From an uncultured Defluviitaleaceae bacterium (GTDB lineage Bacteria > Bacillota > Clostridia > Lachnospirales > CAYPQA01), in assembly GCA_964611385.1 (NCBI GenBank), contig CAZSXS010000001.1:31058-95057 (forward strand): a DNA stretch of 64,000 nt. Direction: 5' to 3'. The translations under genes were made by a program, and so were the position numbers. The notes under the pieces are model-generated. The model was not told the DNA's origin and ran no database searches. It saw nothing but the letters and a program-made list of their open reading frames with translations. Shown piece after piece: positions 3,223 through 63,300 of this stretch (positions are counted from its first letter, which is position 1; the number at the start of each line of letters is the position of its first letter).

Positions 3223-4067
3223 CTTACAAAGCAAAAGGCCTTGTTTTAAAGGAGATTCCGGTGGGTGAAAACGATAAGGCTGTGATTTTGCTGCTGGAGC
3301 AGTACGGCAAGGTTTGGGTAAACTGCCGGGGGGCCCGCAAGCAAAACAGCCGCTTTTTGGCCGGAACCCAGGTGTTTACCTTCGGGGAATATGAGATCCA
3401 CAGCGGAATTACTAAAAATAATTTCGCTTTTTTTTCGTTGAGCCATGTACTGATTTTGGATAGCTTTTATGGGCTTAGGCTGGACTTTGACTGCCTGTAC
3501 GCTGCCCAGTACTTGCTGGGGCTTGCGGATTTCTATCTGGAGGATGGGGTGGCGGCTGATGGGGTTTTGTCTCTGTTGCTAAAAGCCCTCTCCTGCCTTG
3601 CCCGGCTTTATCAGTTTAAAAGCTACAAGGATCATGAACGCTTTACCCGCTTTGTTGATCAGGTGGCTTTGCTGAAGTTGATCCAGTGCTTCGGTTATGC
3701 GCCCGAGACAGGGTTTTGTACGGAATGTGGGAAGCCGATTCATGAGCTTCTTGCGGATACAAGCTATGGCCAGAAAAAATTGTTTTTCTTTTCTTCTGGT
3801 CTTGTTTGTAGGGAATGCAGGATGAACATGAAGAAGGATACTTTTATTGAGATTGCTGAAAATACGCTTTCTGTGGTAAGACGAATGCTGTATACGGATT
3901 TCAGAAGGTTGATTTGTACTTCTGCGGACTCGTTGGAAATGAATGACTATTATATAGAGGCAGATCGGATTCAGGCGATACTGGAGCTTTGTATAAGGCA
4001 GAATTTTGGATGGAATTATTTTAGCAAGTTCTATAATCTGCCTGTAAAAGGATCTGAACGTGACTGA
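3219..4067 (+). CDS. recO: DNA repair protein RecO
   Basis: GTG start overlaps the upstream stop (GTGA). RecO-like OB-fold N-terminus (GLVLKEIPVGENDKAVILL..GARK) and Cys4 zinc finger (CTECGKP...CRECR). The last codons and the stop lie in an R1 repeat fragment. Confidence 0.85.
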   Translation: MTYKAKGLVLKEIPVGENDKAVILLLEQYGKVWVNCRGARKQNSRFLAGTQVFTFGEYEIHSGITKNNFAFFSLSHVLILDSFYGLRLDFDCLYAAQYLLGLADFYLEDGVAADGVLSLLLKALSCLARLYQFKSYKDHERFTRFVDQVALLKLIQCFGYAPETGFCTECGKPIHELLADTSYGQKKLFFFSSGLVCRECRMNMKKDTFIEIAENTLSVVRRMLYTDFRRLICTSADSLEMNDYYIEADRIQAILELCIRQNFGWNYFSKFYNLPVKGSERD

Positions 4068-4069
4068 GG
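4038..4069 (+). repeat. R1 repeat, right-arm fragment inside the recO 3' end
   Basis: CTGCCTGTAAAAGGATCTGAACGTGACTGAGG. The last 16 nt are identical to the 14574-14589 copy, and it contains the recO stop codon. Confidence 0.7.
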
Positions 4070-4077
4070 ATAGATTA

Positions 4078-4113
4078 CAAAAACCCACGCATTTTTGAAT
4101 GCGTGGGTTTTTG
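4078..4113 (+). terminator. rho-independent terminator after recO
   Basis: AAACCCACGC-ATTTTTGAAT-GCGTGGGTTT followed by a T-run. Confidence 0.85.
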
Positions 4114-4118
4114 TATAT

Positions 4119-4206
4119 ATGGATTTTATCAATATGGATTTTATCAATATGGATTCTTTCAATATAGATTCTTTTAACATGGGTCTATCAATGTGGATTT
4201 AGCAAC
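4119..4206 (+). repeat. six degenerate tandem ~15-bp repeats (ATGGATTTTATCAAT)
   Basis: Units: ATGGATTTTATCAAT x2, then ATGGATTCTTTCAAT, ATAGATTCTTTTAAC, ATGGGTCTATCAAT and GTGGATTTAGCAAC. Lies between the recO terminator and the DUF2087 regulator gene. Confidence 0.85.
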
Positions 4207-8297: not shown

Positions 8298-8496
8298 TTT
8301 TTACTATTTGTCTGTTTTAATGTAAAGCCGCCAAGCAAATAGATAGAGGCTTTCAGGAATGGATATTGGCAGCTCGGGGGAGCTTGAGGGTCTGTTCAAC
8401 TCAGATTGAGTATCGTATAAGGAGAACAAATTTGTTGAAATCATTCATTTGCTTGCTTATAATAGTGGTGAGTGCGGCAGTTTGCATTCATAAATA
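8298..8496 (+). repeat. R1 repeat, degenerate copy
   Basis: Left arm TTTTTACTATTTGTCTGTTTTAATGTAAAGCCGCCA and right arm GTGAGTGCGGCAGTTTGCATTCATAAATA resemble the family arms. About 130-nt interior. Confidence 0.4.
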
Positions 8497-9368: not shown

Positions 9369-9800
9369 CTATTCCTCCAAATCCCTTACTTGAAACAAGT
9401 GCTTCTGTAGCCCATGGTAATAGTTGCCTTCCTCGGCAGTAAAACGAAGTATGCAGTAGTCTGGGTCTGTAGCGCCAAGAGGGTAATATTGCTTGTCTTC
9501 TTCCTGCCAAAAAGCCTGCTTTGTTTCTTTGTCAGTGCATACCTGCATATGTCCTGTCAACATCAATCCATGAAAATCTTTTGGATCAACAAAATAAATA
9601 CAGGCTTGCGGGCGCTCAAGCCATTGCCCTGTACGTATGGCTGAAACATTGGTTGAAAACCAAAATTCTTTCAGACCATCTTGTTTACGAACCAGCATCG
9701 TTTTAGCATTCGGAAACCCCTTATTGTCAATAGAACAAACAGTTGCGTCCCTGCTCCCTTTAACCAAATGAATAATGTCTTGTTTTACTTGCGTGTTCAA
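9369..9800 (-). CDS. pyridoxamine 5'-phosphate oxidase family (split-barrel flavoprotein) protein
   Basis: 143-aa ORF with a TTG start 7 nt after GGAGG. General PNPOx-like pattern (NKGFPNAKTM...FSTN...). Tightly packed after the marR gene. Confidence 0.55.
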   Translation of the reverse strand: MNTQVKQDIIHLVKGSRDATVCSIDNKGFPNAKTMLVRKQDGLKEFWFSTNVSAIRTGQWLERPQACIYFVDPKDFHGLMLTGHMQVCTDKETKQAFWQEEDKQYYPLGATDPDYCILRFTAEEGNYYHGLQKHLFQVRDLEE

Positions 9801-12066: not shown

Positions 12067-13523
12067 AGTTTTCATGGAAGCTGTTTATGTGTACAATTTC
12101 AATCGTGGCAATCACCTTGGCATTTGGAGGGAATTATATCGTTAATTCCTTCTTCAGATCGGCCCTATCAAGAGAAACCAAGCAAGCGCTTGATGAAAGC
12201 GGCATGATTCGCTTTGCCTTCGAGACTGCAACGCTGAATATTCCTTCGAAATATGAACATCTTCAAGACCAGACCATTGCGCAAATTGGAGCGACCCTAG
12301 ATACAGGAGCGCAGAATCGATACATCAGAATCAGCGCGGAAAATGCGGATATGCTTTATGAAAGTGATGCATTTTGCGTGGATGATACTATTTTGAGTTC
12401 TGCTTCCAGCAAAGAGATCGCCTATAAAATTACAGCTGTAAATGAGAATTATTACATACAAACTGCCCTTAAGGTGAATACAGTCGACCGTGAAATTTAT
12501 CTTGAAACGCTAAAAAACATAACGACTATATTTGATGAACGTGCAGCCGGTTTTTTGGTCTATAAACAGCTTTGCATCATTGTGCTGTTATGCGAGGGCT
12601 TAATCATCTTCTTGCTTTCACGCTGGCTAACGCATCCGGTTCGATTGATTTCAACTGCAACAAGAAATATGGCCAAGGGGGAGTATAGTTATCGGGCTAA
12701 AAAGGTCAGTAATGATGAGCTTGGCTGGCTGACAGATAACTTTAATCAAATGGCGGGGGCCTTAGAAGAGCAGGTCGAGAAACTAAAGGAAGCGGCGCGG
12801 TCACAAGAGGAATTTGTTGGGGCGTTTGCGCATGAATTAAAGACCCCACTTACTGCAATCATAGGATATGCGGATATGCTTCGTTCTCAAAAACTAGATG
12901 AGGAAAAACTCATGCTATCGGCAGATTATATTTACCAAGAAGGCCGAAGGCTTGAAAAATTATCCTTCAATCTACTTGACATTATCGTTTTAAAACATGT
13001 CAATAAGCCCTCGTCCATATTCCTTGCCAGTACGCTATTTGAATATATAAAGGATACGTTTTCGAAAAGCAAGATTCGATTGACCTTAGCGTATGAGGAG
13101 AGCCCGATTGTTGGGGATTTGGTTCTGATTAAAACGTTATTAACGAATCTAATTGATAATGCCATTAAGGCCTCGAAGCCAGAAGACGCGATCCTGTTAA
13201 ACGGAGGGACAAGCCACAATCAATATATCTTTACCGTCAAAGATCATGGCTGCGGCATTTCGCCTGAGGATTTGGATAAGGTGACAAAAGCCTTCTACAT
13301 GGCGGACAAATCGCGCTCTCGAAGCCGCCATGGTGCTGGGCTTGGTCTTACCTTATGCCTTGAAATTGCGCGTTTGCACGGAAGTGAGTTAAAGATCGAA
13401 AGCGTAGTGGGTCTTGGAACCAGCATAAGCTTTGCGCTTGACATGGGCTTGCTTGACACAGGCTTTCTTGATATGGGCTCTTTTGATACAGACGGCACAA
13501 GGGAGAAGGGAGGACGGCATTGA
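12063..13523 (+). CDS. sensor histidine kinase (HAMP-HisKA-HATPase)
   Basis: Two TM segments and a HAMP domain. H-box FAHELKTPLT, N-box LIDNAIKAS, G-boxes DHGCGI and GAGLGL. ATGA overlap with the regulator gene. Confidence 0.9.
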   Translation: MKFSWKLFMCTISIVAITLAFGGNYIVNSFFRSALSRETKQALDESGMIRFAFETATLNIPSKYEHLQDQTIAQIGATLDTGAQNRYIRISAENADMLYESDAFCVDDTILSSASSKEIAYKITAVNENYYIQTALKVNTVDREIYLETLKNITTIFDERAAGFLVYKQLCIIVLLCEGLIIFLLSRWLTHPVRLISTATRNMAKGEYSYRAKKVSNDELGWLTDNFNQMAGALEEQVEKLKEAARSQEEFVGAFAHELKTPLTAIIGYADMLRSQKLDEEKLMLSADYIYQEGRRLEKLSFNLLDIIVLKHVNKPSSIFLASTLFEYIKDTFSKSKIRLTLAYEESPIVGDLVLIKTLLTNLIDNAIKASKPEDAILLNGGTSHNQYIFTVKDHGCGISPEDLDKVTKAFYMADKSRSRSRHGAGLGLTLCLEIARLHGSELKIESVVGLGTSISFALDMGLLDTGFLDMGSFDTDGTREKGGRH

Positions 13524-14359
13524 GTAAACAAATTGCGGCTTTGCTATTGGTCATAACGGTGATCCTGCTGTCTATATTCTTACCGGCAGAATTAGCAAGG
13601 GTTTATGACCATTCCATACTTGACACAGTTCAAAAAGAAAATGGCGACAACTCCCCTGAGAGCTTCCGCTATTCCTTAACAAGCCCACAGCGTCTTTACG
13701 TTCTATCAATGGCGCTTAATAATCATAATATTTTGCAAAGCGATTACGCTGCCTCCTTACGTGAAAAGGCCATCCGAACCAATCGAAATGATACCGTGGC
13801 CTCCTTTGCTTATGTTGAAAACGGATATGGCTTGCTGAAAAATGAATTGGATGCCGAAAAGGCTATGGAAATCTGTACTTCTGAATTGTCTTTCATCTTA
13901 AAGGACGGACTTGGAATGGATGACTTTGAAATGGATCGCTTTGAAATCAAAAATCCTTGTCGGCAAACGCTCTACTCTGCCGTGGATATGCTCGAGCCTC
14001 AGAAAAGCGTATCAGTATGGCAAATCGAATATGACAGCGTTCTGCCCCCTGATGCTTCTCCCTTTTCTTTGATCGAAGCCCATGTCGATGCGGAAACAGG
14101 AAAGCTGTACAGCTTTTCTTTCCGTACAGATACCCTTATCAAGACCCTTACCGATTTTGATGCCGACAAACTTGCAAAAGCGTGGTTAAGCCGCCTTAAC
14201 ATTACAGCGTTCAGCGATATAACCGAAAACAGCCCTCTTGCCGAAACAGCCAAGCAGTATAAGAAGTTTGCAACAGAGGGAATGAATACTGAAAAGACGG
14301 TCTTTACAGTGGGCTTTTACGAAGGGATAAATGAGGTTTTTGTTCGGATAACCAATTAG
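13520..14359 (+). CDS. membrane-anchored PepSY-like protein
   Basis: TTG start after GGGAGG overlaps the kinase stop. N-terminal TM anchor. A VDAETGKLYSF segment resembles PepSY-type domains. Confidence 0.45.
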   Translation: MSKQIAALLLVITVILLSIFLPAELARVYDHSILDTVQKENGDNSPESFRYSLTSPQRLYVLSMALNNHNILQSDYAASLREKAIRTNRNDTVASFAYVENGYGLLKNELDAEKAMEICTSELSFILKDGLGMDDFEMDRFEIKNPCRQTLYSAVDMLEPQKSVSVWQIEYDSVLPPDASPFSLIEAHVDAETGKLYSFSFRTDTLIKTLTDFDADKLAKAWLSRLNITAFSDITENSPLAETAKQYKKFATEGMNTEKTVFTVGFYEGINEVFVRITN

Positions 14360-14413
14360 CATAGAATTCAGATAACCAATTAACATGATAAAAAAGGGCA
14401 ACAAGCTGGAAAC

Positions 14414-14455
14414 CAAAAAAAGAGTAGCGCAGAGGAATGCACTACTCTTTTTTTA
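14414..14455. terminator. bidirectional terminator after the two-component operon
   Basis: AAAAAAAGAGTAG...CTACTCTTTTTTT. Confidence 0.8.
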
Positions 14456-14487
14456 GTTTCTTTATAAAGACAACCGATAGCATGGAG

Positions 14488-14590
14488 GTTATACTCAGTC
14501 TCTTAAGCACTTACCAAACCGCCATCATTCGACCTGCTTAAATTATATTTTTTTGTGTGGCGGCTTTGCAAAGCTGAACGTGACTGAGGT
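14488..14590 (+). repeat. R1 repeat, compact full copy
   Basis: Left arm GTTATACTCAGTCTCTTAAGCACTTACCAAACCGCCA, 33-nt interior, right arm TGGCGGCTTTGCAAAGCTGAACGTGACTGAGG. The outer 8 bp and inner 6 bp pair perfectly. Confidence 0.85.
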
Positions 14591-15343
14591 TAAATAGAAT
14601 GAAACTGTGCTTACTAAACATACAAAAAATACGATTTGTGCATAGGCCAGAAATCCTTCGGCGTTATTGTTATACGCTCTATTGAGCAGGGGGATGCCCA
14701 GCCCAATCAGTAAATACCAAAACAGAACGGGTATGAGCTTAAAGCCAGAGCGAAACCCTTTGTTCGTTATTCCACTTCCCGCAAAGATTTTGGTGATATA
14801 GTTCACAATTTTATAAATCAAGCATAAGCATACAAAATAAACGGAAGTTCCGATGAGGGTGTGAAGCCTTTCAGGGCTAAGCAACTGGCTGTAAACGGCT
14901 GTTTGTTGAAAATAAGTCGGAAGATAAACCTCAAGATAAATTGGAAGGTAGATCGAAAGCACAATTCTAAAGCCATTGACAAAAATAGTAGCCAGAAACG
15001 AAAGCCCAATACTGAATATCGTCCAATAAATTCGCTTTGCCATTGTCCCCATCCGATGGACAAACGAGTAAAGCAGCGTTGCAAAGGTAATGAGCATAAA
15101 TTGAACGCCCGAGCAGGATGTTGCAAGTATAAACCGAAAGGAATGGTTGACATATCCGATGTGGGTTTCCTTTTCAAAGCCTATGCCGCTTATGATTTTG
15201 ACCCACCATGCTGTGGGAGCCAAAATCCATTCAAGATCCTCACTGCTGGCATTGCTGCATTGATATTTTATTCCAAACAGGAGGATAAAGCCAAGCAGAT
15301 AGAATACCCAATTTTGCTTGAGGAATGACTGAACTTTAAGCAA
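14543..15343 (-). CDS. exosortase/archaeosortase-family transpeptidase-like membrane protein
   Basis: Polytopic membrane protein with the ordered Cys/Arg/His signature of the family: ATSCSGVQF, NGFRIVLS and ERLHTLIG. The start is translationally coupled to the upstream VIT-vWA gene. The last 15 codons are encoded by an R1 repeat. Confidence 0.7.
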   Translation of the reverse strand: MLKVQSFLKQNWVFYLLGFILLFGIKYQCSNASSEDLEWILAPTAWWVKIISGIGFEKETHIGYVNHSFRFILATSCSGVQFMLITFATLLYSFVHRMGTMAKRIYWTIFSIGLSFLATIFVNGFRIVLSIYLPIYLEVYLPTYFQQTAVYSQLLSPERLHTLIGTSVYFVCLCLIYKIVNYITKIFAGSGITNKGFRSGFKLIPVLFWYLLIGLGIPLLNRAYNNNAEGFLAYAQIVFFVCLVSTVSFYLTSVTFSFAKPPHKKI

Positions 15344-17345: not shown

Positions 17346-17691
17346 AGGAAAACCCCCTGTTTTATTTTTTTACACTATACAAAGGGAATTCATCAAAATG
17401 GTATCTAAGATGTATCAAATTTGTATCAGAACTTATTTTTTTGCAAATTTCTCAGATACTTGAAAAAATCCGCCAAATAGTATATAAATAGTTTGTCGTA
17501 CCGAAAGTTCAACAAGCAAGTGGATGAACTCAAAAGGATGGTGAACTCATGAAGAGGCATCAACGAGATAACTACTCAGTATGGTTGAGAAACCTACCGC
17601 AGGCTATACTGAGTAAAATGCACTAAATTGCGGACAGTCTCAACCGTACTTTTCAATACCCCTACCAATAATGATGAAAAGGAGTACGGTT

Positions 17692-19377
17692 ATGAAACAT
17701 TTGCAAAAGGTCGCAGAAAAGTATAAGGCCCTTATCACCGTTTATCTCATGATGGGATTGACCCAAACTTTCCTGCAAAGTTTTAACGCGAATTATTTTC
17801 AAAAGGTCGTTGACAATTTTACAGAGGGTGTCTTGACAGCAGGAAACATTATGATATATGGCTCAGTGATGCTGCTGCTTATCATCGTTTGTTATTTGAT
17901 TGAATATCCACAACGCAAACTGGAAAATGGCATGAGATTAAGTCTAAAAATGTCCGCCTTGCAGAAGGTAGCAGTAATGGACTATCTATCCTATGTGAGG
18001 CTTGGTACAGGCTCGCTGATACAACGAATTGAAAACGGCGCATCTGCGGGCGAGAATATACTTTTCGGATATTGCTTACGGCTTGTGTGTGAATTGCTAC
18101 CGGCAATGCTGTTCAGTATCTTTTTTGTCTTCCTCATTAGTCGCACTGTAACGATAGCTATTCTGTCGGGCTATATTGTCGTGTTTATCATCACGAAGCT
18201 TTTGTTAAAAGTCTTGTATAAGGTCAAGGAGAACATTCTTGTCAACGAGGAAAAATTCAACCATCTTCTTGTACGAGGCTTTATGGAAATGGTAGTTTTT
18301 CGCGTGAATCGACGTTTCGGATCTGAACTAAAAAAAGTTGAGGAAGCTTCCGATGAAATTATCTCATCAAAGGTTAGGATGAAGTTAATCCACGAAGCCT
18401 TTTTTACCATTTTTGCGGTGCTTATTGGCTTTGTAAAAATCGGAATCGTCGTATATGGCTGGAAAACAAGAACACTAAGCATAGGCCAGATTGTTGCGCT
18501 TGTCGCGCTTGTGGACAACGCATATTATCCAATAGCCATCTTCAATGTCATATACGTCGATTTCAAATTAGATAAGATCGCTTTCGCTCGCTATACGGAG
18601 TTTTTGGATGCAGAAGAAGATACTCGACTTACGCATGGAGAGCTTATTTCAGAATTAAGTGGGAATATATCGTTTACCAAAACAGGATTCCGCTATAATG
18701 AGCGAGAGATATTCAACGACTTTTCTGTTGATATTGAGCAAGGCAAAGCCACAGCCTTTGTTGGAGAAAGCGGCTCGGGCAAATCAACGGCCGTCAAACT
18801 CATAGCCGGGCTGTTGCACCCACACAGCGGATATATAAAAGTAGGGAACCATGACTTAAGTAAAATTAACTTGAACAGTTACTACGAGAACATCGCATAT
18901 CTTCCACAAGAGCCGTCTGTATTTGATGGAACCCTGCGTGAAAACCTAGTCTTTGATGAACCCGTGGAGGATGCTGCGTTGATTGAGGCGATCAGGAATG
19001 TGGGGCTCGAAAGCCTGTACGCCAAGCTTGAAAGCGGCTTGGATACGCCGCTTGGCGAAAGAGGAGTCAGTCTATCCGGAGGAGAACGTCAACAGCTTGC
19101 ACTAGCCCGGCTTTGGTTTACCAATGCAAAAATTATCATTTTAGATGAAGCCACGTCAGCAATTGATAATCTTACAGAGGAAGCCGTAATGAAAAACGTA
19201 ATGGCGCTGCTTGCCAATAGGACCGTTATTGCCATCGCGCATCGTCTTGATTCTATTAGGCCATTCGATATCATCATGGTCTTTAAGGATGGAAACATTG
19301 TGGAGAAAGGTACGTTTGATGAGCTGATTGAAAAGCACCTGTATTTTCAGGAACTGTACAATAGAGCTTCGGTATAA
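17692..19377 (+). CDS. ABC transporter, fused permease/ATPase (exporter type)
   Basis: N-terminal multi-TM domain. Walker A GESGSGKST, signature LSGGERQ, Walker B IIILDEATS. The ATG at 17692 lies 7 nt after AAGGAG. Confidence 0.9.
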   Translation: MKHLQKVAEKYKALITVYLMMGLTQTFLQSFNANYFQKVVDNFTEGVLTAGNIMIYGSVMLLLIIVCYLIEYPQRKLENGMRLSLKMSALQKVAVMDYLSYVRLGTGSLIQRIENGASAGENILFGYCLRLVCELLPAMLFSIFFVFLISRTVTIAILSGYIVVFIITKLLLKVLYKVKENILVNEEKFNHLLVRGFMEMVVFRVNRRFGSELKKVEEASDEIISSKVRMKLIHEAFFTIFAVLIGFVKIGIVVYGWKTRTLSIGQIVALVALVDNAYYPIAIFNVIYVDFKLDKIAFARYTEFLDAEEDTRLTHGELISELSGNISFTKTGFRYNEREIFNDFSVDIEQGKATAFVGESGSGKSTAVKLIAGLLHPHSGYIKVGNHDLSKINLNSYYENIAYLPQEPSVFDGTLRENLVFDEPVEDAALIEAIRNVGLESLYAKLESGLDTPLGERGVSLSGGERQQLALARLWFTNAKIIILDEATSAIDNLTEEAVMKNVMALLANRTVIAIAHRLDSIRPFDIIMVFKDGNIVEKGTFDELIEKHLYFQELYNRASV

Positions 19378-20718: not shown

Positions 20719-20739
20719 GAAGTTCATGACTGAGTATAG
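20719..20739 (+). repeat. R1 repeat, right-end fragment
   Basis: GAAGTTCATGACTGAGTATAG lies in the 50-bp gap between the tldD and pmbA-like genes. Compare GCTGAACATGACTGAGTATAT at 49614-49634. Confidence 0.5.
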
Positions 20740-20750
20740 CACGCATTCAC

Positions 20751-22091: not shown

Positions 22092-22280
22092 TTTACGCCT
22101 CCTTCATGTTGTCCTTTTATCGTGACGCTTTGAAGTATAACATAGCCAAAAAGTCAAGTCAAATAGAGGACTCATTAGGAAAATTGACGAAGGATAAAAA
22201 GGCAAGAGATATTTTCACGCCCTTTTGCTTGCAATCTCGATTACTAACTGTTACAATAAGTGGAAGAATGGAGGTTTCGA

Positions 22281-29101: not shown

Positions 29102-29166
29102 TTCGTCCTCCTTATTGTATGAAAGCTGCTCGCAAGCTGTTTCGGGTGGTATCCCGTCTGTTGCTT

Positions 29167-29931
29167 TCATCGGATCGTTTTATGCAACTTGTGTCCGCTC
29201 ATAGTATAGACGGCTAACAGGACAAGAACGAGATACCACAAGCGTATCACTGACCAACCAACGAAGGGCTGCATTCGGTAGCTGTCGGCAGTAAACTTCA
29301 AGCAATCTGATACCATAGATACGATGGGTCTTTCATAGCTATGCCACAGGGATTCATGCGATTTTAAATAAACCGGCTTCCCAGGTAGCAGGTGTTCCAG
29401 TTGTAGCTTGGTATAGAGAGCAAGGGTAGCGCTTAGACTGATCTTTTGATTCTGGGTGTTATACAGCATCAGGATCGGAAAGGAAAATTTGCTGCCAAAC
29501 CCCAGACTTTGCGTATCTGTGCGGCAGTCAATCAAAATCAACATGTCCACTACTTTATAATTTGTAAGGCTTTGTAGCAGGGGGATCGCTTGCATTTCCA
29601 CCGCAACCAATCCCAGAGTCTTTTGCTCAGCAAAGACAGCTTGGAGTGGCGTGAGATTCGTATCATAGGCAACATAAACACTAAAGCCTTGCTGATAGTA
29701 AGAACGCAGCAGGGCTTTTCCCATTTCGTTCTCTTTGTCCGGCACCAGCAGTAGGATCGCGCGCTCCCCGTTTTTATAATAACTAAAGGTTTCAGTAGCA
29801 AGCGTGGGTCTAAAGGGAAGCATGCCCAGGATGTAAAGTCCTAACCATATCAATAGAAGCACCAGGCCTATAAGCCAGGATGTTTTAACTTTTTTAATAA
29901 GACATTCCCCTTTCCTGTTATCCACCACCAA
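29167..29931 (-). CDS. hypothetical membrane protein (N- and C-terminal TM segments)
   Basis: 254-aa ORF that heads the kinase/regulator operon. It has TM helices at both ends. It is not similar to AgrB by eye. Confidence 0.5.
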   Translation of the reverse strand: MVVDNRKGECLIKKVKTSWLIGLVLLLIWLGLYILGMLPFRPTLATETFSYYKNGERAILLLVPDKENEMGKALLRSYYQQGFSVYVAYDTNLTPLQAVFAEQKTLGLVAVEMQAIPLLQSLTNYKVVDMLILIDCRTDTQSLGFGSKFSFPILMLYNTQNQKISLSATLALYTKLQLEHLLPGKPVYLKSHESLWHSYERPIVSMVSDCLKFTADSYRMQPFVGWSVIRLWYLVLVLLAVYTMSGHKLHKTIR

Positions 29932-35474: not shown

Positions 35475-35891
35475 TTATTCTTCTAAATGTTCCAAGCCTT
35501 GATTTAGAATGGACTTGATGTGATGATCTGAAAGCGAATAAAACACAACCTTCCCTTCTCGCCTAAATTTAACAAGTCTGTTCGATTTTAGGACTTTGAG
35601 CTGATGAGAAATTGCGGATTGACTCATATTCAGTATACTAGCAATATCGCACACGCACATCTCCGATTCAAACAGAACATACAAAATCTTGATGCGAGTC
35701 GTGTCGCCAAAAACCTTATAAAGCTCAGCCAGATCATACAGTATCTCATCATCCGGCATCTTCTCGTTTACGCTTCTTACAACATCCTCATGAACACAAA
35801 GGCGCTCGCAGGTCGGTAAGCTGCTCTTATCATTTGTTTTGTTCGTTTCGTTTGTTTCGTTCGTTTCGTTTGTTTCGTTTGTTTCGTTCAT
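35475..35891 (-). CDS. cadC: ArsR/SmtB-family metalloregulator (CadC-like) with N-terminal (NET)n repeat
   Basis: alpha3 CVC site (SEMCVCDIA), N-terminal Cys pair (PTCERLC) and a winged HTH (SQSAISHQLKVLK). I prefer the ATG at 35891 (AGGTGA 8 nt upstream). The ORF-track GTG is at 35903. Confidence 0.7.
   Translation of the reverse strand: MNETNETNETNETNETNKTNDKSSLPTCERLCVHEDVVRSVNEKMPDDEILYDLAELYKVFGDTTRIKILYVLFESEMCVCDIASILNMSQSAISHQLKVLKSNRLVKFRREGKVVFYSLSDHHIKSILNQGLEHLEE
35839..35889 (-). repeat. in-frame 9-bp tandem repeat encoding (NET)4-NKT at the cadC-like N-terminus
   Basis: The plus strand reads GTTTCGTTT/GTTTCGTTC units. The peptide is MNETNETNETNETNKTND. Confidence 0.85.
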
Positions 35892-35992
35892 TTTTATTTT
35901 CACCTAACCTTTCTACGAATTTATATATGAGCAATCGTTCATATGAACTATACAGGATTCTCTAGATTCTGTCAAGATCAAAAATTTGGGCC

Positions 35993-36449: not shown

Positions 36450-37076
36450 ATGGATAGATTGATAACCATAGGTGAAGCGTCAAAAATATTAGGCGTATCT
36501 ATATCGACATTGAGAAGATGGGATAGAGAAGGAAGGCTCACACCTGAAAAAACAACGTCAGGACATCGCCGTTATGATATTTCTAAGCTAAAACCTGAAA
36601 TGTATAAAGAGCAAATAAAAGAGGCACGCAAAACAATAGCGTATGCGAGAGTATCAAGTCACGACCAAAAAGCTGATTTAGAAAGGCAAAAGCAAGTATT
36701 AGAACTTTATTGTGCAAAACAGGGTTGGATTTTTGAAATAATAAGTGATTTAGGCTCAGGAATGAATTACCATAAAAAAGGCTTGAAACGCTTATTGAAT
36801 GACATTTTGGCTGAGAAAGTCGGGCGGCTTGTTATTTCGCATAAAGACAGACTTTTGCGTTTTGGTGCAGAATTGATTTTTGCCATATGTGAAGCAAAGC
36901 AAGTCGAGGTTGTTATACTCAACCAAGGCGAAGATACAACTTTTGAAGAAGATTTGGCAAAAGATGTGTTGGAGATTATCACTGTCTTTTCTGCTCGTCT
37001 TTATGGTTCAAGGAGTTGTAAGAACCAAAAATTACTTGAAGATGTAAAAAAAGCAGTAGAGGCGGTGAGCGAATGA
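36450..37076 (+). CDS. tnpA: IS607-family serine recombinase/transposase TnpA
   Basis: MerR-like HTH (ITIGEASKILGVSISTLRRWDREGRL) followed by a resolvase catalytic domain (IAYARVSSHDQKADLERQ). Confidence 0.9.
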   Translation: MDRLITIGEASKILGVSISTLRRWDREGRLTPEKTTSGHRRYDISKLKPEMYKEQIKEARKTIAYARVSSHDQKADLERQKQVLELYCAKQGWIFEIISDLGSGMNYHKKGLKRLLNDILAEKVGRLVISHKDRLLRFGAELIFAICEAKQVEVVILNQGEDTTFEEDLAKDVLEIITVFSARLYGSRSCKNQKLLEDVKKAVEAVSE

Positions 37077-38266
37077 TTTTAGCTCACAAAATACAACTTG
37101 ACCCGAATAATGTTCAAGCAACCTATTTTGCCAAAGCTTGTGGTGTTGCTCGTTTTGCTTATAACTGGGGACTTGCTGAATGGAAAAGACTTTATGAAGC
37201 AGGTGAAAAGGTAAACGAAGGAATATTAAGAAAAAATCTAAACGCTATAAAAGGTGAGGAATTTCCTTGGATGCTTGAAGTCACAAAATGCGCTCCACAG
37301 TTGGCAATTAAAGACGGCTTAAACAAAGCGTTCCAAAACTTTTTTCGTGGATTAAAACAGGGTAACCCAGTCGGTTTTCCTAAGTTTCATAAAAAAGGTG
37401 TACACGACAGTTTTGCGTTGTCTAACGATCAATTTAGAATAGATGGCTTAAAAATCAAAATCCCTAATCTCGGTTGGGTTAGACTGACAGAAAAATTACG
37501 TTTTATCGGGAAAATAATAGGGGCCACAATTAGTCGTAAAGCAGATAGACGGTTCGTATCCGTGCAAGTAGAAATATCTGACCCTACACCAATTCATACA
37601 ACTGTTAGCGAAAACCAAGCAATAGGTGTTGATTTAGGCGTTAAGGATTTGGCAGTTTTATCAGACGGAACAAAGATAACAGGAACAAAACCACACAAAG
37701 CTTTACTATCACGATTACGTCGCCTTAATCAATCTCTTTCAAGAAAACAAGGTGCGAAAAAAGGCGAAAAGAAGTCTAAAAACTTCAAAAAAACACAAAT
37801 GAAGCTGTCAAGATTACACGCAAGAATAGCAAACATACGAGGCGATGAAACTCACAAGCTAACTACAATGCTAACTGATAATTATAGCCTTGTAGGTATT
37901 GAGGATTTGAATGTGTCGGGTATGGCTAAAAATCACAAATTGGCTCGTGCTGTCCTTGATATGAGTTTCTTTGAATTTCGCAGACAATTAGAGTATAAAA
38001 CAAAAATGAAGGGAGGGCACGTTATCATTGCGGATAGGTTTTATCCGTCCAGCAAAGCCTGCTCTTGTTGCGGTTATAAAAACAATGAATTGACTTTATC
38101 TGTACGTGAATGGATGTGTCCTAATTGCAAAACAACGCACGACAGAGACATTAATGCTGCAACAAATTTAAAGAATTACGCCGTGAGTTACACGGTGTCA
38201 GCCTGTGGAGAGTTAGTGGAAACAATCACCTCGAAGAAGCAGGAACTCAACATCACTGCCGAATAG
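37073..38266 (+). CDS. tnpB: TnpB (OrfB_IS605-type RNA-guided endonuclease family)
   Basis: RuvC-I GVDLGVKDLAVLSDG, zinc finger CSCCGYKN...CPNCKTTHDRDINAATN with RuvC-III. ATGA overlap with tnpA. Confidence 0.9.
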   Translation: MILAHKIQLDPNNVQATYFAKACGVARFAYNWGLAEWKRLYEAGEKVNEGILRKNLNAIKGEEFPWMLEVTKCAPQLAIKDGLNKAFQNFFRGLKQGNPVGFPKFHKKGVHDSFALSNDQFRIDGLKIKIPNLGWVRLTEKLRFIGKIIGATISRKADRRFVSVQVEISDPTPIHTTVSENQAIGVDLGVKDLAVLSDGTKITGTKPHKALLSRLRRLNQSLSRKQGAKKGEKKSKNFKKTQMKLSRLHARIANIRGDETHKLTTMLTDNYSLVGIEDLNVSGMAKNHKLARAVLDMSFFEFRRQLEYKTKMKGGHVIIADRFYPSSKACSCCGYKNNELTLSVREWMCPNCKTTHDRDINAATNLKNYAVSYTVSACGELVETITSKKQELNITAE

Positions 38267-41382: not shown

Positions 41383-41772
41383 TCAAAGTGCCTTCACATA
41401 AAATTTGCGGTTTCTGGGTCCGTCAAATTCGCAGAAATAGATCCCTTGCCATGTGCCGAGTAAGAGCCGCCCATTTTGTACGATGAGTGTCTGGCTTGCA
41501 CCAACGCAGCTTGATTTAAGATGAGCCGCGGAATTGCCTTCAGCGTGGTGGAATTCTGAACGGTTCGGAAATGCCTTATCTAGACCGATCAGTAAGTCAT
41601 GAATTACATCAGGGTCTGCATTTTCGTTGATCGTAATTCCAGCTGTGGTGTGAGGGCAGTAAACAATGCAGAGGCCATCTTTTATGCCACTTCGGGTGAC
41701 AAGTTCCTGAACCTTATTGCTTATGTTATAAAAGCCTTCCTTTTCTGTTTTCAATGTGTATTCTTGTACCAT
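41383..41772 (-). CDS. yjbQ: YjbQ-family protein (secondary thiamine-phosphate synthase-like)
   Basis: 129 aa with the family blocks CPHTTAGITINENADPDV and GNSAAHLK. Confidence 0.75.
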   Translation of the reverse strand: MVQEYTLKTEKEGFYNISNKVQELVTRSGIKDGLCIVYCPHTTAGITINENADPDVIHDLLIGLDKAFPNRSEFHHAEGNSAAHLKSSCVGASQTLIVQNGRLLLGTWQGIYFCEFDGPRNRKFYVKAL

Positions 41773-41984
41773 TGATCTCTCTCCCTTTTAAATCCTCTCG
41801 AATAAGCCTATAAGTCTCGCGCTTTACTGAGTATATCCAAAATTTTCCGCTGTTTATCTTATCCCAAACGATTCACTCTTTCAAGTAATGAAAGCAAATT
41901 TTTCTGAGTCCTTCTAAAATCGTGTGAGGAAGGTCTAATCCCTCGTGAATTTTGAAGTCGCAGTTTTCTAAGGGTTTGTTAAAC

Positions 41985-42028: not shown

Positions 42029-42065
42029 TCGGCACTTACAAAATTTAAAATGATAAAACTCCAAC

Positions 42066-42175
42066 CCCACGTCCGGCTTTTTTGAAAGGTGGAGGAAGGG
42101 GGTGTGGGGGGGAGGAGGAGGAAAACTTTTTTCGCCGTTTGAAAAAAGTTTTCCTCCTCCTCCCCCCACGGTCTT
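42066..42175 (+). repeat. R2 repeat copy 2 (stem 42107-42132 / 42142-42167)
   Basis: Same architecture as copy 1, with stem GGGGGGAGGAGGAGGAAAACTTTTTT and a perfect complement. Lies just downstream of the minus-strand fumarate hydratase stop. Confidence 0.9.
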
Positions 42176-47909: not shown

Positions 47910-48061
47910 GGAACACCTCATAATCATTGGTAAGGGTACTGAGTATACGAATAAAAATATCAGAGCATACAAAAATTGAGCATGGGAAAAGGCATTCGGA
48001 AAGAAAGGATACCGAATCCCTAACCGCTCACGCTCAAGGTTAAACTGCGTTATCAGCCTAT

Positions 48062-48160
48062 TCACAATTTTCTAAAACATTTTCAAGCCGCTACCTTGCA
48101 GTATGGAAGACTTTACAGGGTTTGCATAGCGGCTCTGTAAAGTTGAACGTGACGGAGCAA
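48062..48160 (+). repeat. R1 repeat copy between DUF1292 gene and addB
   Basis: Left arm TTCTAAAACATTTTCAAGCCGCTA, right arm TAGCGGCTCTGTAAAGTTGAACGTGACGGAGC. Confidence 0.65.
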
Positions 48161-48161
48161 A

Positions 48162-48749
48162 TTATTTTTTGCTTCGAGAACCGTTTGTGCTGCTGTCATC
48201 CGCATCATCGTCAAAGTCGTCGTCTTCAAAATCGTCGTCGTCAAAGTCCTCATCATCGAAGTCCTCGTCATCAAAATCCTCATCGTCGAAATCGTCCTCA
48301 TCGAGTTCTTCTTCATCGTAGTCCTCATCGTCGAAATCGTCGTCGTCAAAGTCTTCATCGTCATCGTCTTCATCATCTTCATCGTCTACGTCATCTTCGT
48401 CGAACTCTTCGTCATCATCAAAATCATCCAGATTTTCATCCAAGTCTTCGAACAGCTCATTAAAAACCTTAAGAACAGCGTCGTATTCCTCATCGCTTTC
48501 GATGTTGTCAAGTTCCACATCCTCGTCCTTCTCAGTGTATCTGAAAATAAGCACGTGATCTTCCTGTAAAGGCAGCAGGGCAATATAGCTCCTTGCACCG
48601 ATTTCGAAATCCACGTCAAAAACGCCAAGAACATTACATTCAAGGTTGTCGTTTCCTTCCACCGAAATGATAACTGTTTCATTTCCTCCGCATCCGCAGC
48701 CGTCGTGACTGCATCCGCCGTTGCAACCATCATTGCAATGATCAGCCAT
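48162..48749 (-). CDS. DUF1292-family protein with Cys-rich N-terminus and poly-acidic C-terminal tail
   Basis: DUF1292-like core (LECNVLGVFDV..RSYIALLP...VLIFRY). N-terminus HCNDGCNGGCSHDGCGCGG. About 95-aa D/E/F tail (DEDFDD repeats). ATG at 48749 after GAGGTG. Confidence 0.7.
   Translation of the reverse strand: MADHCNDGCNGGCSHDGCGCGGNETVIISVEGNDNLECNVLGVFDVDFEIGARSYIALLPLQEDHVLIFRYTEKDEDVELDNIESDEEYDAVLKVFNELFEDLDENLDDFDDDEEFDEDDVDDEDDEDDDDEDFDDDDFDDEDYDEEELDEDDFDDEDFDDEDFDDEDFDDDDFEDDDFDDDADDSSTNGSRSKK
48165..48440 (-). repeat. low-complexity GAT/GAC/GAA-rich coding repeat (acidic tail)
   Basis: The plus strand shows reiterated TCGTCGTC/TCATCATC units. It encodes the D/E/F-rich tail of the DUF1292 protein and spawns shadow ORFs in other frames. 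Confidence 0.85.
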
Positions 48750-48869
48750 GATATTCACCTCATTATAAATTATCGTATGCATCCATTTCCATTCTGTTTT
48801 AAGTTACTGATATATCCTTGCATTATACCACAGGAATGAAAAATTGTAATCATTTTTTCAAAATATTTT

Positions 48870-49283: not shown

Positions 49284-49636
49284 GTACTCAGTCAAGTCTT
49301 GCTTGGCAATTATTTAGGAGACTGAGTAATTTTCACTTTGTTCACTTTGTTCGACTCTGCTTATCATGGCCAGCGCGGACAGGATTGTCCAATACTGGAG
49401 ATTGTCACTTCGGGGATAGTTCATTGTTTGAGGAGCATCCGTTCTCTCATTATAATATAGTCATGAAATTGGTAATTTATACCAACTTTTTAAAAAGGCA
49501 TTGCAAGTGAAGACTTTTATGCTGTTGGCTTCGTTTAAAATTAAGGAATATTTTAGGTGCTCGCTTAATAAAGTGTTTATGTACTTATCTTGTTTTGTGC
49601 GGGGGCTTTGCAACGCTGAACATGACTGAGTATATA
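49284..49636 (+). repeat. R1-related arms separated by ~290 nt
   Basis: Left GTACTCAGTCAAGTCTTGCTTGGCAA (49284-49309) and right GTGCGGGGGCTTTGCAACGCTGAACATGACTGAGTATATA (49597-49636). Whether they form one element is uncertain. Confidence 0.45.
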
Positions 49637-49684
49637 AAATAAACCCTGTTGGGTTATAAAATAATATTTTAGGAGATGAAGACG

Positions 49685-50302
49685 ATGCCGAACTACAACC
49701 TGAACATTTCATTCGAAGCAGCAGATCTTTCAACGATTATTTCGGCCAATCAGAAGGTCACCTTGGTCAAACAAAATAACCAAGGGATCAACCTTGCTTG
49801 GGTTGCATTCCAACCCTTCCAGCACAACACCTTGGAATGGAAAAGCGATTATGCCCTCTATTGCTCAAACAGTGAGCTTCAATCGGGTGTTCAGATTAAC
49901 AAACTGTCCGATGTAATGGCCACAGCTGCCTTGAAGTACATTTTCAAAAACGCCTGTTTTTCATCCACCAAGGATGCCGGTGAACTCCTTTTGCCCGATT
50001 CCTATTATGTGAGAAACGAAATGGATGGCTATGACGCTTTGACCTTTGGTCTTGCTCAAGGGATTTATGTAAACGGCAAGGCCATTCCAAATCGCCCCAT
50101 CAATGCGGTTATGGTTCCCTTCATGCACAACACTTCCTTTACGCCGTATGAAATTGTGAATGTTTACTTGGAGGCTAACATAAAGGAGTCCATGGTCGTT
50201 ACCAATGTCAGTACCAATCCCATTACTCTGGTGTTTGGCGGCGGCATTGACACCATTAATATCAAGTACAATAGAGCTTCCGGATCCTTCTATCAAGAGT
50301 AA
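49685..50302 (+). CDS. hypothetical protein with internal two-fold repeat
   Basis: ATG 9 nt after AGGAG. No signal peptide. The two halves share the pattern IN.A.V.F.PF.HNT...W/F......Y (AWVAFQPFQHNTLEW / NAVMVPFMHNTSFTPY). A strong terminator follows. Confidence 0.6.
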   Translation: MPNYNLNISFEAADLSTIISANQKVTLVKQNNQGINLAWVAFQPFQHNTLEWKSDYALYCSNSELQSGVQINKLSDVMATAALKYIFKNACFSSTKDAGELLLPDSYYVRNEMDGYDALTFGLAQGIYVNGKAIPNRPINAVMVPFMHNTSFTPYEIVNVYLEANIKESMVVTNVSTNPITLVFGGGIDTINIKYNRASGSFYQE

Positions 50303-56919: not shown

Positions 56920-57626
56920 GCGAGAAAATCGAAAAGACCGAAAAAACACTTTGGGATTTTTACGGAGCGATCCAAAAAGAAAAGCCGATTGAACTGGGGC
57001 CGTACACCTCGTATCGCTTCCTTAACTCCCCCAGGCAGCTGCTCTTTTCCATTGCCAGATATAAATTTGCCGCCAAGCTCTTTGGGAGTAAGCAAAGAAT
57101 CCTAGAGCTTGGCGGGGGGGACGGCCTGGGGGCTTACTACCTGTCTGAGTTTGAGCATGAGGTAAGCTGTGTTGACTTTGACGGGACTTCCATCGGCTGG
57201 GCAAAGGAGAATCCTGTCCTTTCCCACATTCACTTTATTGAGGATAATTTTTTGGGTCAAAGCTATGGTGTGTTTGACGGCGTGGTTTCCTTTGATGTGC
57301 TGGAACATATTTATCCGCGTAACGAAGGTCTCTTCATGCACACGATCAAGAAAAACCTCTCGGAACACGGGGTCTTGATCCTGGGGACACCTTCCCTGGA
57401 AAGCCAGCAGTATGCCGGTAAGGACATCGGAGGCGCTCATGTCAATCTCTATACCGGCGAAGGCCTAAGGGAATTGCTCTCCGAGCATTTTCACCATGTT
57501 TTCTTGTTTACACAAAACGACGAAATCATCCATACAGGCTTTTTCCCCATGGCCAATTATCTCATTGCCCTTTGCTGCGGGAAAAAGGAATCTACGGACG
57601 GAGGTATTCATGAGCCAAGCCCATAA
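56916..57626 (+). CDS. class I SAM-dependent methyltransferase
   Basis: Motif I ILELGGGDGLG and post-I VDFD. ATGA overlap with the transketolase C subunit. Confidence 0.8.
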   Translation: MSEKIEKTEKTLWDFYGAIQKEKPIELGPYTSYRFLNSPRQLLFSIARYKFAAKLFGSKQRILELGGGDGLGAYYLSEFEHEVSCVDFDGTSIGWAKENPVLSHIHFIEDNFLGQSYGVFDGVVSFDVLEHIYPRNEGLFMHTIKKNLSEHGVLILGTPSLESQQYAGKDIGGAHVNLYTGEGLRELLSEHFHHVFLFTQNDEIIHTGFFPMANYLIALCCGKKESTDGGIHEPSP

Positions 57627-58698
57627 GCCGGAAGCCACACCTTACAGCCGATTAAAAATATTTCACCACGAGGAACTAATCAAAAAGCTGGGAACAGGAC
57701 AACGCTGTGCGCCTCTTCGTATCCGCATAAAGCCTACCAATCGCTGCAACCATAACTGTACCTTTTGCCACTACCTGAATCCCTACTTAACCTTGGATCA
57801 CTTCAAGCCCGATGACTTTATTGACCGCGAAAGAATGCTGTCCACGCTGCGGTCGATCCAAAAAGCCGGAACCAAGGCCATTGTCTTTTCCGGCGGCGGC
57901 GAACCGCTTCTTTATCCCTATATGGAAGACAGTGTGGAACTCGCCAAGAGCTTGGGTCTTGAATATGCCTTAATCACCAACGGAACCCTGCTGAAAGGGC
58001 GGCTGGCGGAACTGTTTGCGGAAGCCAAATGGGTAAGGATCTCCATCAATTCTGTCCGAGACGAGGTATACTGCAAAAGCCGGGACATCAAAGCGGGTGA
58101 ATTTACCAAGCTGTGCAGTGTGATTGAGTCCTTCGGCAAACAGAAAAAATCAGGCTGCGAACTGGGTATCAACTTTGTAATTGGGCCGGAAAACTACGCT
58201 GAGATCATTGAAGCCGGACTATTACTAAAATCCCTGGGCGTCAATCACATCAAATTCTCCGCCCAATTCAGCAACACCTTTCAGGAAGACCACGCTCCCT
58301 TTAAGGACGAAGCCCTACAACAGCTGGCAGAACTAAAGCAAGAGCAAACAGAAGCCTTCAAAATCATCAACTTATATGAAGGTGACCTGCAAGCCCACGG
58401 CACCTGCGCAACCTTCCGGCGCTCCTACTCACACTGTTACGCCAAGGAATTTTCCTGCGTGATCGGTGCAGACTCCAGGGTGTACTTCTGCCACGATAAG
58501 GCCTACCTCAAAGACGGCGTAGCCTTCGACCTGAAAGACGGTTCCTTTCACGAGCTTTGGGCAGCCCCCGAAATCCTCCAAAAGTACCAAGCCTTCCAAG
58601 CCGATCAGGTCTGCCCCCACCACTGTACATACGATGAATTAAATGCACTCCTTCATGCCTTTTTCGGGATAAAAAAAGAACATATCAATTTTATATAG
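57610..58698 (+). CDS. radical SAM enzyme (paralog 2)
   Basis: CNHNCTFCHY cluster motif and SGGGEP. N-terminal KIFHHEEL parallels KLIYHPEA of paralog 1. Ends ...HINFI. ATG at 57610 after GGAGG. Confidence 0.85.
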   Translation: MSQAHKPEATPYSRLKIFHHEELIKKLGTGQRCAPLRIRIKPTNRCNHNCTFCHYLNPYLTLDHFKPDDFIDRERMLSTLRSIQKAGTKAIVFSGGGEPLLYPYMEDSVELAKSLGLEYALITNGTLLKGRLAELFAEAKWVRISINSVRDEVYCKSRDIKAGEFTKLCSVIESFGKQKKSGCELGINFVIGPENYAEIIEAGLLLKSLGVNHIKFSAQFSNTFQEDHAPFKDEALQQLAELKQEQTEAFKIINLYEGDLQAHGTCATFRRSYSHCYAKEFSCVIGADSRVYFCHDKAYLKDGVAFDLKDGSFHELWAAPEILQKYQAFQADQVCPHHCTYDELNALLHAFFGIKKEHINFI

Positions 58699-58700
58699 AA

Positions 58701-58808
58701 GTTATACTCAGCTTCTTTAACAATTACCAAGCCCGCCATCATTCACCCCAAATGGATTCCACTGTTCTGCGTGGCGGCTTTGTAAAACTGAACGTGATAA
58801 CTATAACT
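58701..58808 (+). repeat. R1 repeat, compact full copy
   Basis: Left arm GTTATACTCAGCTTCTTTAACAATTACCAAGCCCGCCA, 33-nt interior, right arm TGGCGGCTTTGTAAAACTGAACGTGATAACTATAAC. Starts 3 nt after the radical-SAM stop. Confidence 0.85.
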
Positions 58809-58809
58809 C

Positions 58810-58914
58810 CCCACGCCCGGCTTTTTTGAAAGGGATAGGAGGGGTTTGGGGGAGGGAAGGGAAAACTTTTTTCGCCGTTTGAAAAAAGTTTCCCCTTCCC
58901 TCCCCCAAGGTCTT
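58810..58914 (+). repeat. R2 repeat copy 3 (stem 58848-58872 / 58882-58906)
   Basis: Same architecture, with stem GGGGGAGGGAAGGGAAAACTTTTTT and one A-C mismatch. Directly abuts R1 copy 58701-58808. Confidence 0.9.
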
Positions 58915-58934
58915 GTCCTTATAAAGGAGGTTTT

Positions 58935-59597: not shown

Positions 59598-59609
59598 GCG
59601 GAGGTTTGT

Positions 59610-60590: not shown

Positions 60591-60608
60591 TTCTGAGATT
60601 CGAGTAAT
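60575..60608 (+). repeat. tandem 17-nt duplication spanning the epimerase stop codon
   Basis: TCTGAGATTCGAATAAT / TCTGAGATTCGAGTAAT (one mismatch), immediately before the R1 left arm. Confidence 0.85.
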
Positions 60609-60854: not shown

Positions 60855-60875
60855 TGAAAGGTAAAAAGGAGATCT

Positions 60876-62405: not shown

Positions 62406-62414
62406 GAAAGGTAA

Positions 62415-63110: not shown

Positions 63111-63300
63111 TATTCTCCCCTTCTTTCCTATTGGGTTATATATAGTATACCATAAAATGCGCAAAATTTAAAGACTTGTAATTGTTCTTTACTTCAATTA
63201 CTATTCGATACAATTATATATGAAAGGGGTGTAAGCATTTTATAGGTTTCAATAACGGATAGAAACGGCAATTATCATTAGGGTAATGGAGGGATTTTAA

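Follow-up and report, generated by a model that had tools for sequence, protein, structure and literature searches.

The ERIC/IRU sequences of enterobacteria are imperfect palindromes of ~127 bp that lie in transcribed intergenic DNA and occur in size variants produced by internal insertion; we know of no transposase for them. The Correia/NEMIS elements of Neisseria and the pneumococcal RUP are bacterial miniature inverted-repeat transposable elements (MITEs) with long terminal inverted repeats, and Correia and RUP elements duplicate the dinucleotide TA. The attC sites of integrons are also imperfect palindromes with conserved ends and a variable centre; their cores read RYYYAAC...GTTRRRY, and they stand in a cassette array next to intI. 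REP palindromes carry an unpaired GTAG or CGTC tag at one end (PMC3733652), and in REPINs an inverted doublet, with a spacer of variable length, folds into a single hairpin (PMC3116915). Here, we compare these systems with R1, a repeat that has a compact copy near position 14,488 of a 64-kb stretch of DNA (contig CAZSXS010000001.1; "the window" is this whole stretch). R1 is a genuine dispersed family of non-coding imperfect palindromes of ~105 bases that lie between, and slightly into, ordinary genes, and is sampled here by four paired copies (A to D) plus fragments. Repeats of this kind are ordinary in bacteria, and R1 most likely derives from a small mobile element that has since decayed; what is new is a lineage-specific member of an already known class, the short palindromic intergenic repeats.

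The case for a family rests on the recurrence of the two arms. The right-arm core CTGAACGTGACTGAG has five matches in the window at up to 2 mismatches, all on the + strand, where 0.03 are expected, and the left-arm core (27 nt) has three at up to 3 mismatches, two on the + and one on the − strand, where the expectation is 0.00. When each arm is left out of the profile in turn, nhmmer recovers all right arms with E values of 5e-5 to 8e-11 and the left arms of A, B and D with E values of 1e-4 to 8e-8 (for R1-A, 8e-8 on the left and 8e-11 on the right); the left arm of C is not recovered (E 2.5). Matches so far above expectation, together with the leave-one-out recovery, exclude chance. A repeat finder also clusters 14488-14598 with repeats that start at 58701, 48088, 49561 and 60600. 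The sequence at 14488-14590 is thus as an earlier preliminary description had given it and belongs to a repeat family beyond chance, and the arm similarity claimed there is significant on alignment for every arm other than the left arm of C. Compared pairwise, left arms are on average 68% identical and right arms 73%, against 37% for the centres and 25-33% for the flanks; R1 is sharply bounded, and conservation in the arms, unpaired middle blocks included, exceeds that in the centre. The pieces occur at a density of about one per 6-10 kb.

Each arm is an inverted and diverged version of the other, built on one unit of ~35-40 nt, as seen when TATACTCAGTCTCTTAAGCACTTACCAAACCGCCA is compared with the reverse complement of the right arm, TATACTCAGTCACGTTCAGCTTTGCAAAGCCGCCA. 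The unit consists of a terminal (GT)TATACTCAGTC, an unpaired middle block and an inner CCAAGCCGCCA, and the terminal inverted repeats TATACTCAGTC and GACTGAGTATA bound a centre that varies in length from 0-33 nt up to 163 nt. In an alignment of A to D, 79% of cells pair in register, compared to 23-37% when the 3′ partner is slid by 1-3 columns, which bears out the claim that the arms are partly complementary; the inner helix (10 pairs) is 92.5% paired and the outer helix (13 pairs) 70%. Hairpins are predicted on both strands, with the inverted doublet and its spacer forming a single hairpin. For R1-A, the predicted energy is −28.4 kcal/mol on the + strand (z −2.7) and −30.1 kcal/mol on the − strand (z −3.2), while the fold predicted for R1-D, at −99 kcal/mol, is mainly that of an inserted hairpin. 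Covariation among the four sequences does not rise above that of shuffled alignments (2 pairs with double changes versus 1.6 expected, a number reached by 251/500 shuffles). The palindrome is proven from four sequences; selection for pairing is not. A search of the whole window against Rfam gave no match at the gathering score, and at E ≤10 only a 10.9-bit chance match on A and generic hairpin (microRNA) matches on R2, a second repeat family described below, and on the internal hairpin of D.

The pieces that we recognise are collected in Table 1. The core of the earlier list of at least eight copies and fragments stands, whereas about half of the listed copies and look-alikes are non-significant or share only a 10-nt terminal motif. 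The compact copy first placed at 14488-14590 is a full copy, reads GTTATACTCAGTCTCTTAAGCACTTACCAAACCGCCATCATTC, 27 variable nt and GTGGCGGCTTTGCAAAGCTGAACGTGACTGAGGTTAA, and extends to about 14598. For the copy reported at 58701-58808 (R1-B), the left arm and the right arm as far as 58797 hold; the outer end of the right arm has been lost or replaced, and the sequence there does not resemble R1 and adjoins a copy of R2 (about 58800-58908). At 48062-48160 (R1-C), the right arm is sound and the left is degenerate, such that the sole pairing left is the inner CAAGCCGCTA, with one C-G to U-A double change. Both arms of the expanded copy reported at 60606-60854 (R1-D) are confirmed around an unrelated centre of 163 nt, which has a 28-bp hairpin of its own (60696-60769). 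A further supposed expanded copy, 49284-49636, is in fact two pieces, an inverted mini copy and a solo right arm; in the former, the left arm is joined directly to a terminal GACTGAGTA, giving a 9-bp hairpin of −13.0 kcal/mol (z −3.9). The right-arm fragment at 4038-4069 was found again at slightly shifted coordinates (fragment F). At 20719-20739 and 41826-41845, the terminal 10-14 nt are present and the remainder of the arm is not, and the look-alike at 17567-17615 is a mini palindrome with the terminal motif and no other R1 sequence. No significant arm match was found at 22119-22145, 42030-42065 or 8298-8496; the last, proposed as an expanded copy, was rejected with a best arm match of only E 0.35.

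Table 1. Positions in the window of R1 pieces, of sites that share the R1 terminal motif, and of the insertion sequence.
Feature	Position	Strand	Remarks
R1-A, full compact copy	14488-14598	+	left arm 14488-14530, centre ~14531-14550, right arm 14551-14597
R1-B	58701-58797	+	left arm 58697-58744 (E 1e-4), right arm 58764-58797 (E 4e-7)
R1-C	48058-48165	+	right arm 48120-48165 good (E 3e-6); left arm degenerate (E 2.5 when left out)
R1-D, expanded full copy	60604-60862	+	left arm 60604-60647, right arm 60816-60862
Solo right arm (E-right)	49593-49640	+	leave-one-out E 6e-7; no recognisable left arm found before it
Mini copy, opposite orientation, centre deleted	49284-49330	−	left arm on minus strand 49328-49301 (E 2e-4)
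Right-arm fragment F	4043-4075	+	E 0.005; leave-one-out E 0.002-0.03
Mini palindrome TACTCAGTA-(25 nt)-TACTGAGTA	17573-17615		43 nt; shares terminal motif only; upstream of ABC-transporter gene 17671-19377
Solo terminal motif GACTGAGTATAG (as read on +)	20728-20741		14/14 match to E-right, E 0.009
Solo terminal motif TACTGAGTATA	41825-41835		leader of minus-strand yjbQ-like gene 41383-41772
Solo terminal motif, then weak left-arm-like TTACCAA block	47927-47948	−	E 5.3 only; 10-mer at 47938-47947
IS607-type insertion sequence	36450-38266	+	TnpA = MerR-HTH + serine recombinase (NF033518, 224 bits), then TnpB

The preliminary description had seen a uniform polarity in R1 and compared it to elements mobilised as single-stranded hairpins, such as REP/RAYT and IS200/IS605. 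The outer inverted repeat ACTCAGT...ACTGAGT is unchanged by reverse complementation and hence carries no polarity; orientation is defined only by the asymmetric middles of the arms. By this measure, six polar pieces lie on the + strand (A, B, C, D, the solo right arm and the recO fragment F) and one, the mini copy, on the − strand (two-sided binomial p 0.125). Uniform polarity, the main argument for single-strand mobilisation, is thus not established. In a REPIN-like scenario, inverted doublets would be copied as single-stranded DNA (ssDNA) hairpins by a domesticated HUH/Y1 enzyme, RAYT- or IS200-like, that is encoded once elsewhere, with a bias in strand or replication. The doublet hairpin with its variable spacer fits the definition of a REPIN (PMC3116915), arms do occur as singlets, 6 of the 7 polar pieces share one orientation, and their location is mostly downstream of or between genes, as is the case for REPs (PMC3733652). 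We nevertheless find this scenario quite unlikely. None of seven single arms folded as ssDNA forms a stem-loop of its own (−0.6 to −5.2 kcal/mol, z −0.25 to +0.77), so they are neither REP units nor subterminal hairpins of the IS200/IS605 type; the unpaired GTAG or CGTC tag of REPs (PMC3733652) is not found at the arm ends of A, B, C, D or the solo right arm; and the orientation bias is non-significant, with one copy inverted. A Pfam search of all non-overlapping open reading frames (ORFs) of at least 140 aa detects no Y1 transposase domain in the window, in agreement with the earlier statement on this point, which had nonetheless missed an IS607 element with TnpB at 36450-38266. With the polarity failing, no stem-loops in the arms, no tag and no Y1 enzyme in the window, mobilisation as single-stranded hairpins is unsupported.

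Ends of the IS200/IS605 type were rejected, as the arms have no separate hairpins and the window has no Y1_Tnp domain. We also think it very doubtful that R1 is the hairpin substrate of an unrecognised ssDNA mobilisation system, a Gram-positive counterpart of REPIN/RAYT in deep-branching Clostridia in which the arms would pair only with each other and orientation would track replication; the 6-to-1 strand bias in the window would be compatible with such a system. An unusual transposase partner or a replication-linked polarity, if true genome-wide, would raise the interest of R1.

In relation to genes, R1 sits in unrelated contexts. R1-A is flanked on one side by a bidirectional terminator hairpin (14409-14460) and on the other by the 3′ end of a minus-strand XrtK-like exosortase-family gene, and is transcribed on the minus strand, if at all. 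R1-B is found in the 3′ untranslated region of the plus-strand radical-SAM gene 57496-58698, R1-C in the spacer of the minus-strand DUF1292-addB pair, and R1-D between a plus-strand epimerase gene and hldE. The mini copy occupies the 5′ leader of a minus-strand DUF2508 gene, and the solo right arm is 36 nt upstream of the plus-strand gene 49676-50302. Since A and C fall in minus-strand units and B and D in plus-strand units, the orientation of the DNA is uncoupled from the direction of transcription, as had been claimed.

Two of these pieces have become part of coding sequence: each encodes the C-terminal residues of a protein, and one arm also contributes the stop codon. The end of recO, GGA TCT GAA CGT GAC TGA, lies within fragment F, with the stop TGA (4065-4067) inside CTGAACGTGACTGAG and a terminator hairpin after it, so that the earlier reading of ...GSERD-TGA within a right-arm fragment holds. 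The exosortase-family protein has the C-terminus TSVTFSFAKPPHKKI*, and its final residues come from the right arm of R1-A; the copy supplies the last 15 codons and the stop. Here, the proposed origin of the tail in the reverse complement of a right arm is correct, except that the stop codon falls within the variable centre, outside the arm. The match to the XrtK model ends at residue 184 of 266, well ahead of this stop. At addB, the database protein has 1078 aa compared to 1130 aa for the ORF, and the N-terminal extension of the ORF is therefore read-through of the spacer, as previously suspected.

The terminal part of the arm also occurs alone. With up to 1 mismatch, the terminal 10-mer TATACTCAGT is found 13 times in the window versus 2.07 expected, and it stands by itself at 17573, 17607, 20729, 41826 and 47938, the last three being exact. 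It is itself nearly palindromic (TACT-S-AGTA, 9-13 nt). The paired motifs at 17573-17615 form a predicted DNA hairpin of −8.4 kcal/mol (z −3.1), the motif at 20728-20741 is upstream of the likely start of a pmbA/tldD-like gene, and the one at 47938, absent from the earlier list, is 29 nt upstream of the addB start at 47909. These positions bring up a promoter reading, in which the terminal TATACT would be a −10 box and the arms dispersed promoter or leader modules: four minus-strand start codons have TATACTCAGT 29-60 nt upstream and directed towards them, and one site has a TGn extended −10. We rejected this reading, which we hold to be highly improbable, because a consensus scan gives no −35 partner for any solo site, a better promoter-like site is present upstream in two cases, which places the motif inside the leader, and both TATACT boxes face inwards in full copies; R1-A, moreover, has no downstream gene.

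Alternatively, the host might retain R1 and the short TACTSAGTA palindromes as cis-acting sites, either as RNA hairpins in untranslated regions and operon spacers that govern mRNA stability or processing, or as DNA sites for a dimeric protein, two of which would lie ~90 bp apart in R1. The arms, unpaired middle blocks included, are far better conserved than the centre, the palindromic terminal motif stands alone in the leaders of four genes (in two of them just downstream of promoter-like sites), three copies lie between a stop codon and a terminator-like hairpin, and the C-G to U-A double change preserves the inner helix of C. On balance, we judge host-kept sites to be unlikely. Covariation stays at the level of shuffled alignments, B and C have a broken outer helix, and the copies occur in both transcriptional orientations despite their asymmetric arms; the neighbouring genes have no evident common function, nothing comparable is found at the orthologous spacers of relatives, and there is no Rfam family.

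Searches beyond the window gave no further members. In a scan of one genome per species for 185,579 species (GTDB), with a pattern that fits 3/5 of the right arms in the window, there were 13 matches, all of them chance hits in Pseudomonas, Acidobacteria and other unrelated taxa. A related right-arm pattern gave a single match in the JGI metagenomes, a chance hit in coding sequence, and right-arm patterns were not found in IMG/VR, plasmids, phages or E. coli genomes; the source genome is evidently absent from these collections. Around the hldE or addB orthologues of five relatives (~60 kb), no arm appears at E <0.5, and there are only four look-alikes of the terminal motif. This distribution points to a restriction of R1 to this lineage. 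In the closest and only syntenic relative (AddB 46% identical), a distant one, the DUF1292 stop codon overlaps the addB start (TAATG), while the same junction in the window has a spacer of 250 nt with R1-C and the 47938 motif. The comparison is consistent with insertion, and the junction in this distant relative is a possible empty site.

We propose that R1 is an old, lineage-restricted, non-autonomous palindromic family of the MITE/ERIC kind, with the arms as recognition sites of a transposase, and put this at about an even chance. Sharp boundaries, inverted arms, unrelated contexts, both orientations, truncated, solo and mini derivatives, nesting and lineage restriction argue for a selfish palindromic element rather than an RNA gene or an operator. 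Nesting is seen in the foreign sequence at the centre of D and in the abutment of B on R2, and signs of decay in the solo arms, the right-truncated copy, the centre-deleted minis and the bare terminal motifs. The arms would in effect be terminal inverted repeats recognised by a transposase encoded elsewhere in the genome, and arms that serve as recognition sites would be conserved along with their unpaired blocks, with centre and flanks free to diverge. Only copies with intact arms would leave descendants, and the centres of long palindromes would turn over fast. Copies would have landed in intergenic DNA and at the extreme 3′ ends of genes, and later decay would account for the present mix of full copies, isolated arms, minis that have lost the centre, and terminal motifs on their own. 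From their positions, copies are probably co-transcribed in the orientation set by the neighbouring gene. The present-day effects of R1 look passive: hairpins, protein tails and a stop codon.

Several observations weigh against this proposal. There is no consistent direct repeat that would represent a target-site duplication: the bases conserved outside ACTCAGT/ACTGAGT are inverted, and the exact ends are uncertain. Copy A alone has a 7-nt direct match (GAGGTTA), which may be chance. No cognate transposase or autonomous element with R1 ends was found in the window, in which the only insertion sequence is the IS607 element. No two copies are closer than about 80%, giving no sign of recent movement, and A and B, copies of equal size, have unrelated centres. 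Such centres are not what simple copy-and-paste from a single master would give; they require a deep genealogy or fast turnover of palindrome centres. The conserved unpaired blocks could equally reflect a function for the host, and the sample is limited to four paired copies in 64 kb. Separately, a visual likeness of CAGTCTCTTAAGCAC to the Tn5 mosaic end was rejected, as the required direct flanking repeats are absent.

The window is ordinary chromosome of an uncultured, deep-branching Clostridia-like bacterium, with a G+C content of 44%. Its genes include ybeY-era-recO, addB, two-component systems and a glycan-synthesis cluster with hldE; the gene for the XrtK-type exosortase adjoins one for a VIT-vWA protein. 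Outside the source genome, the closest matches are 63% identical for HldE and 46% for AddB; no close relative is present in the databases, and the few named matches are Lachnospiraceae or Clostridiales metagenome-assembled genomes. An SLH-domain search for paralogues from the source genome returned five matches, all unrelated. An independent Logan assembly of run SRR10912415 is 100% identical to the window over 58882-64000, including copy D, and the R1 repeats are thus not peculiar to one assembly. Logan contigs of 6 kb from the same run extend the window edges by 3.2 kb and 1 kb, and R1 was not found in these extensions. The ratio of gene strands, tallied from ORF coordinates, is ~53:47, and GC skew tracks the gene strand. 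The TnpB of the IS607 element has HTH_OrfB_IS605, OrfB_IS605 and Cas12f1-like TNB domains; its exact protein has no record in the assembly index, and neither HEARO nor any other Rfam match was found at the 3′ end of the element. We rejected IS607 as a parent of R1, as its ends have no significant similarity to R1.

Other repeats were also noted. R2, which abuts R1-B, occurs at 2601-2728, 42040-42169 and 58784-58908 and consists of CCCACGYCCGGCTTTTTTGAAAG, a G-rich tract and then a hairpin of 27-28 bp that is perfect or near-perfect (96-100%), with the loop CGCCGTTTGA. The stems differ among copies (GGAAGGAGAAG, GGAGGAGGAGG and GGGAGGGAAGGG) yet each is self-complementary, a pattern indicative of either compensatory change or correction templated by the hairpin. 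Two Logan contigs of SRR10912415 terminate inside an R2 copy. The centre of R1-D contains a 28-bp inverted repeat (60680-60769, 89% complementary), one arm of which (ATGAAAGCCCCGAAAGGGATACCGCCCC) is 77% similar over 57 nt, in inverted orientation, to 29126-29182, the start-codon region of a LytTR response-regulator gene at 29170. This centre looks like a captured, inverted-duplicated fragment of the 5′ end of a gene. In an unrelated AT-rich organism (L016, about 9680-9800), a different long hairpin, AAGGGGCTGTCGCAT...ATGTGACAGCCCCTTTTTTT, occupies the epimerase-hldE spacer that holds R1-D in the window, and this spacer seems prone to gathering hairpin elements. Two direct 20-nt repeats (TTCGGATAACCAATTAGCAT and TTCAGATAACCAATTAACAT; 14343-14386), 24 nt apart from start to start, are found where gene 13520-14359 stops, just ahead of the terminator next to R1-A. 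Past the recO terminator hairpin and upstream of a DUF2087 gene, five tandem 15-nt units (TTATCAATATGGATT-like) at 4111-4184 may be an iteron or operator array. The DUF1292 protein encoded beside addB (minus-strand gene 48162-48782) has a long acidic tract at 48175-48458 with a 15-nt periodicity and 14 overlapping repeat registers, and its orthologue in the closest relative likewise has a D/E/W-rich tail. Lastly, the ArsR-family ORF 35475-35903 is overlapped at its 5′ end by tandem 9-nt repeats (35830-35892; TCGTTTGTT-like, at least five copies), and its N-terminal portion may not be genuinely coding.

In annotation, several ORF artefacts trace to R1 and its fragments: addB and the pmbA-like gene carry N-terminal extensions, and recO and the exosortase-family gene have R1-derived tails. 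Masking of R1 and its fragments before gene calling is advised in this lineage. Short palindromic repeats are little catalogued in uncultured Firmicutes, and R1 adds an example. The family could be a useful marker of strain or lineage and could serve studies of how palindromic repeats decay.

Set against the described systems, R1 is like attC in being an imperfect palindrome with conserved ends, a variable centre and one apparent polarity. The order of the cores is reversed, with GTTATAC at the 5′ end and GTATAAC at the 3′ end, there is no integrase or cassette array, and the neighbours are housekeeping genes on both strands; an attC site was rejected on these grounds. With REP, BIME and REPIN sequences, R1 shares inverted doublets that fold into a hairpin, singlets, and an extragenic location that is often downstream of genes and occasionally in gene ends. 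Unlike in those systems, the R1 arm of ~40 nt is not itself a palindrome or stem-loop and pairs only with its partner arm, it has no GTAG/CGTC tag, and no RAYT is present in the window. The resemblance to Correia/NEMIS and RUP extends to a length of about 100-150 bp, non-coding sequence, terminal inverted repeats, many dispersed intergenic copies, co-transcribed hairpins, internally deleted or expanded variants and occasional fusion to gene ends. R1 differs in that its copies are only ~70% alike, with unrelated centres and no similarity in the searched collections, and, relative to Correia and RUP, in that a target-site duplication was not found and a parent insertion sequence is not known. 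Finally, R1 comes from a different phylum than ERIC/IRU, has no similarity to any E. coli genome and has far more variable centres, yet it has the same general form: a long imperfect palindrome that is intergenic, lies in either orientation and comes in size variants.

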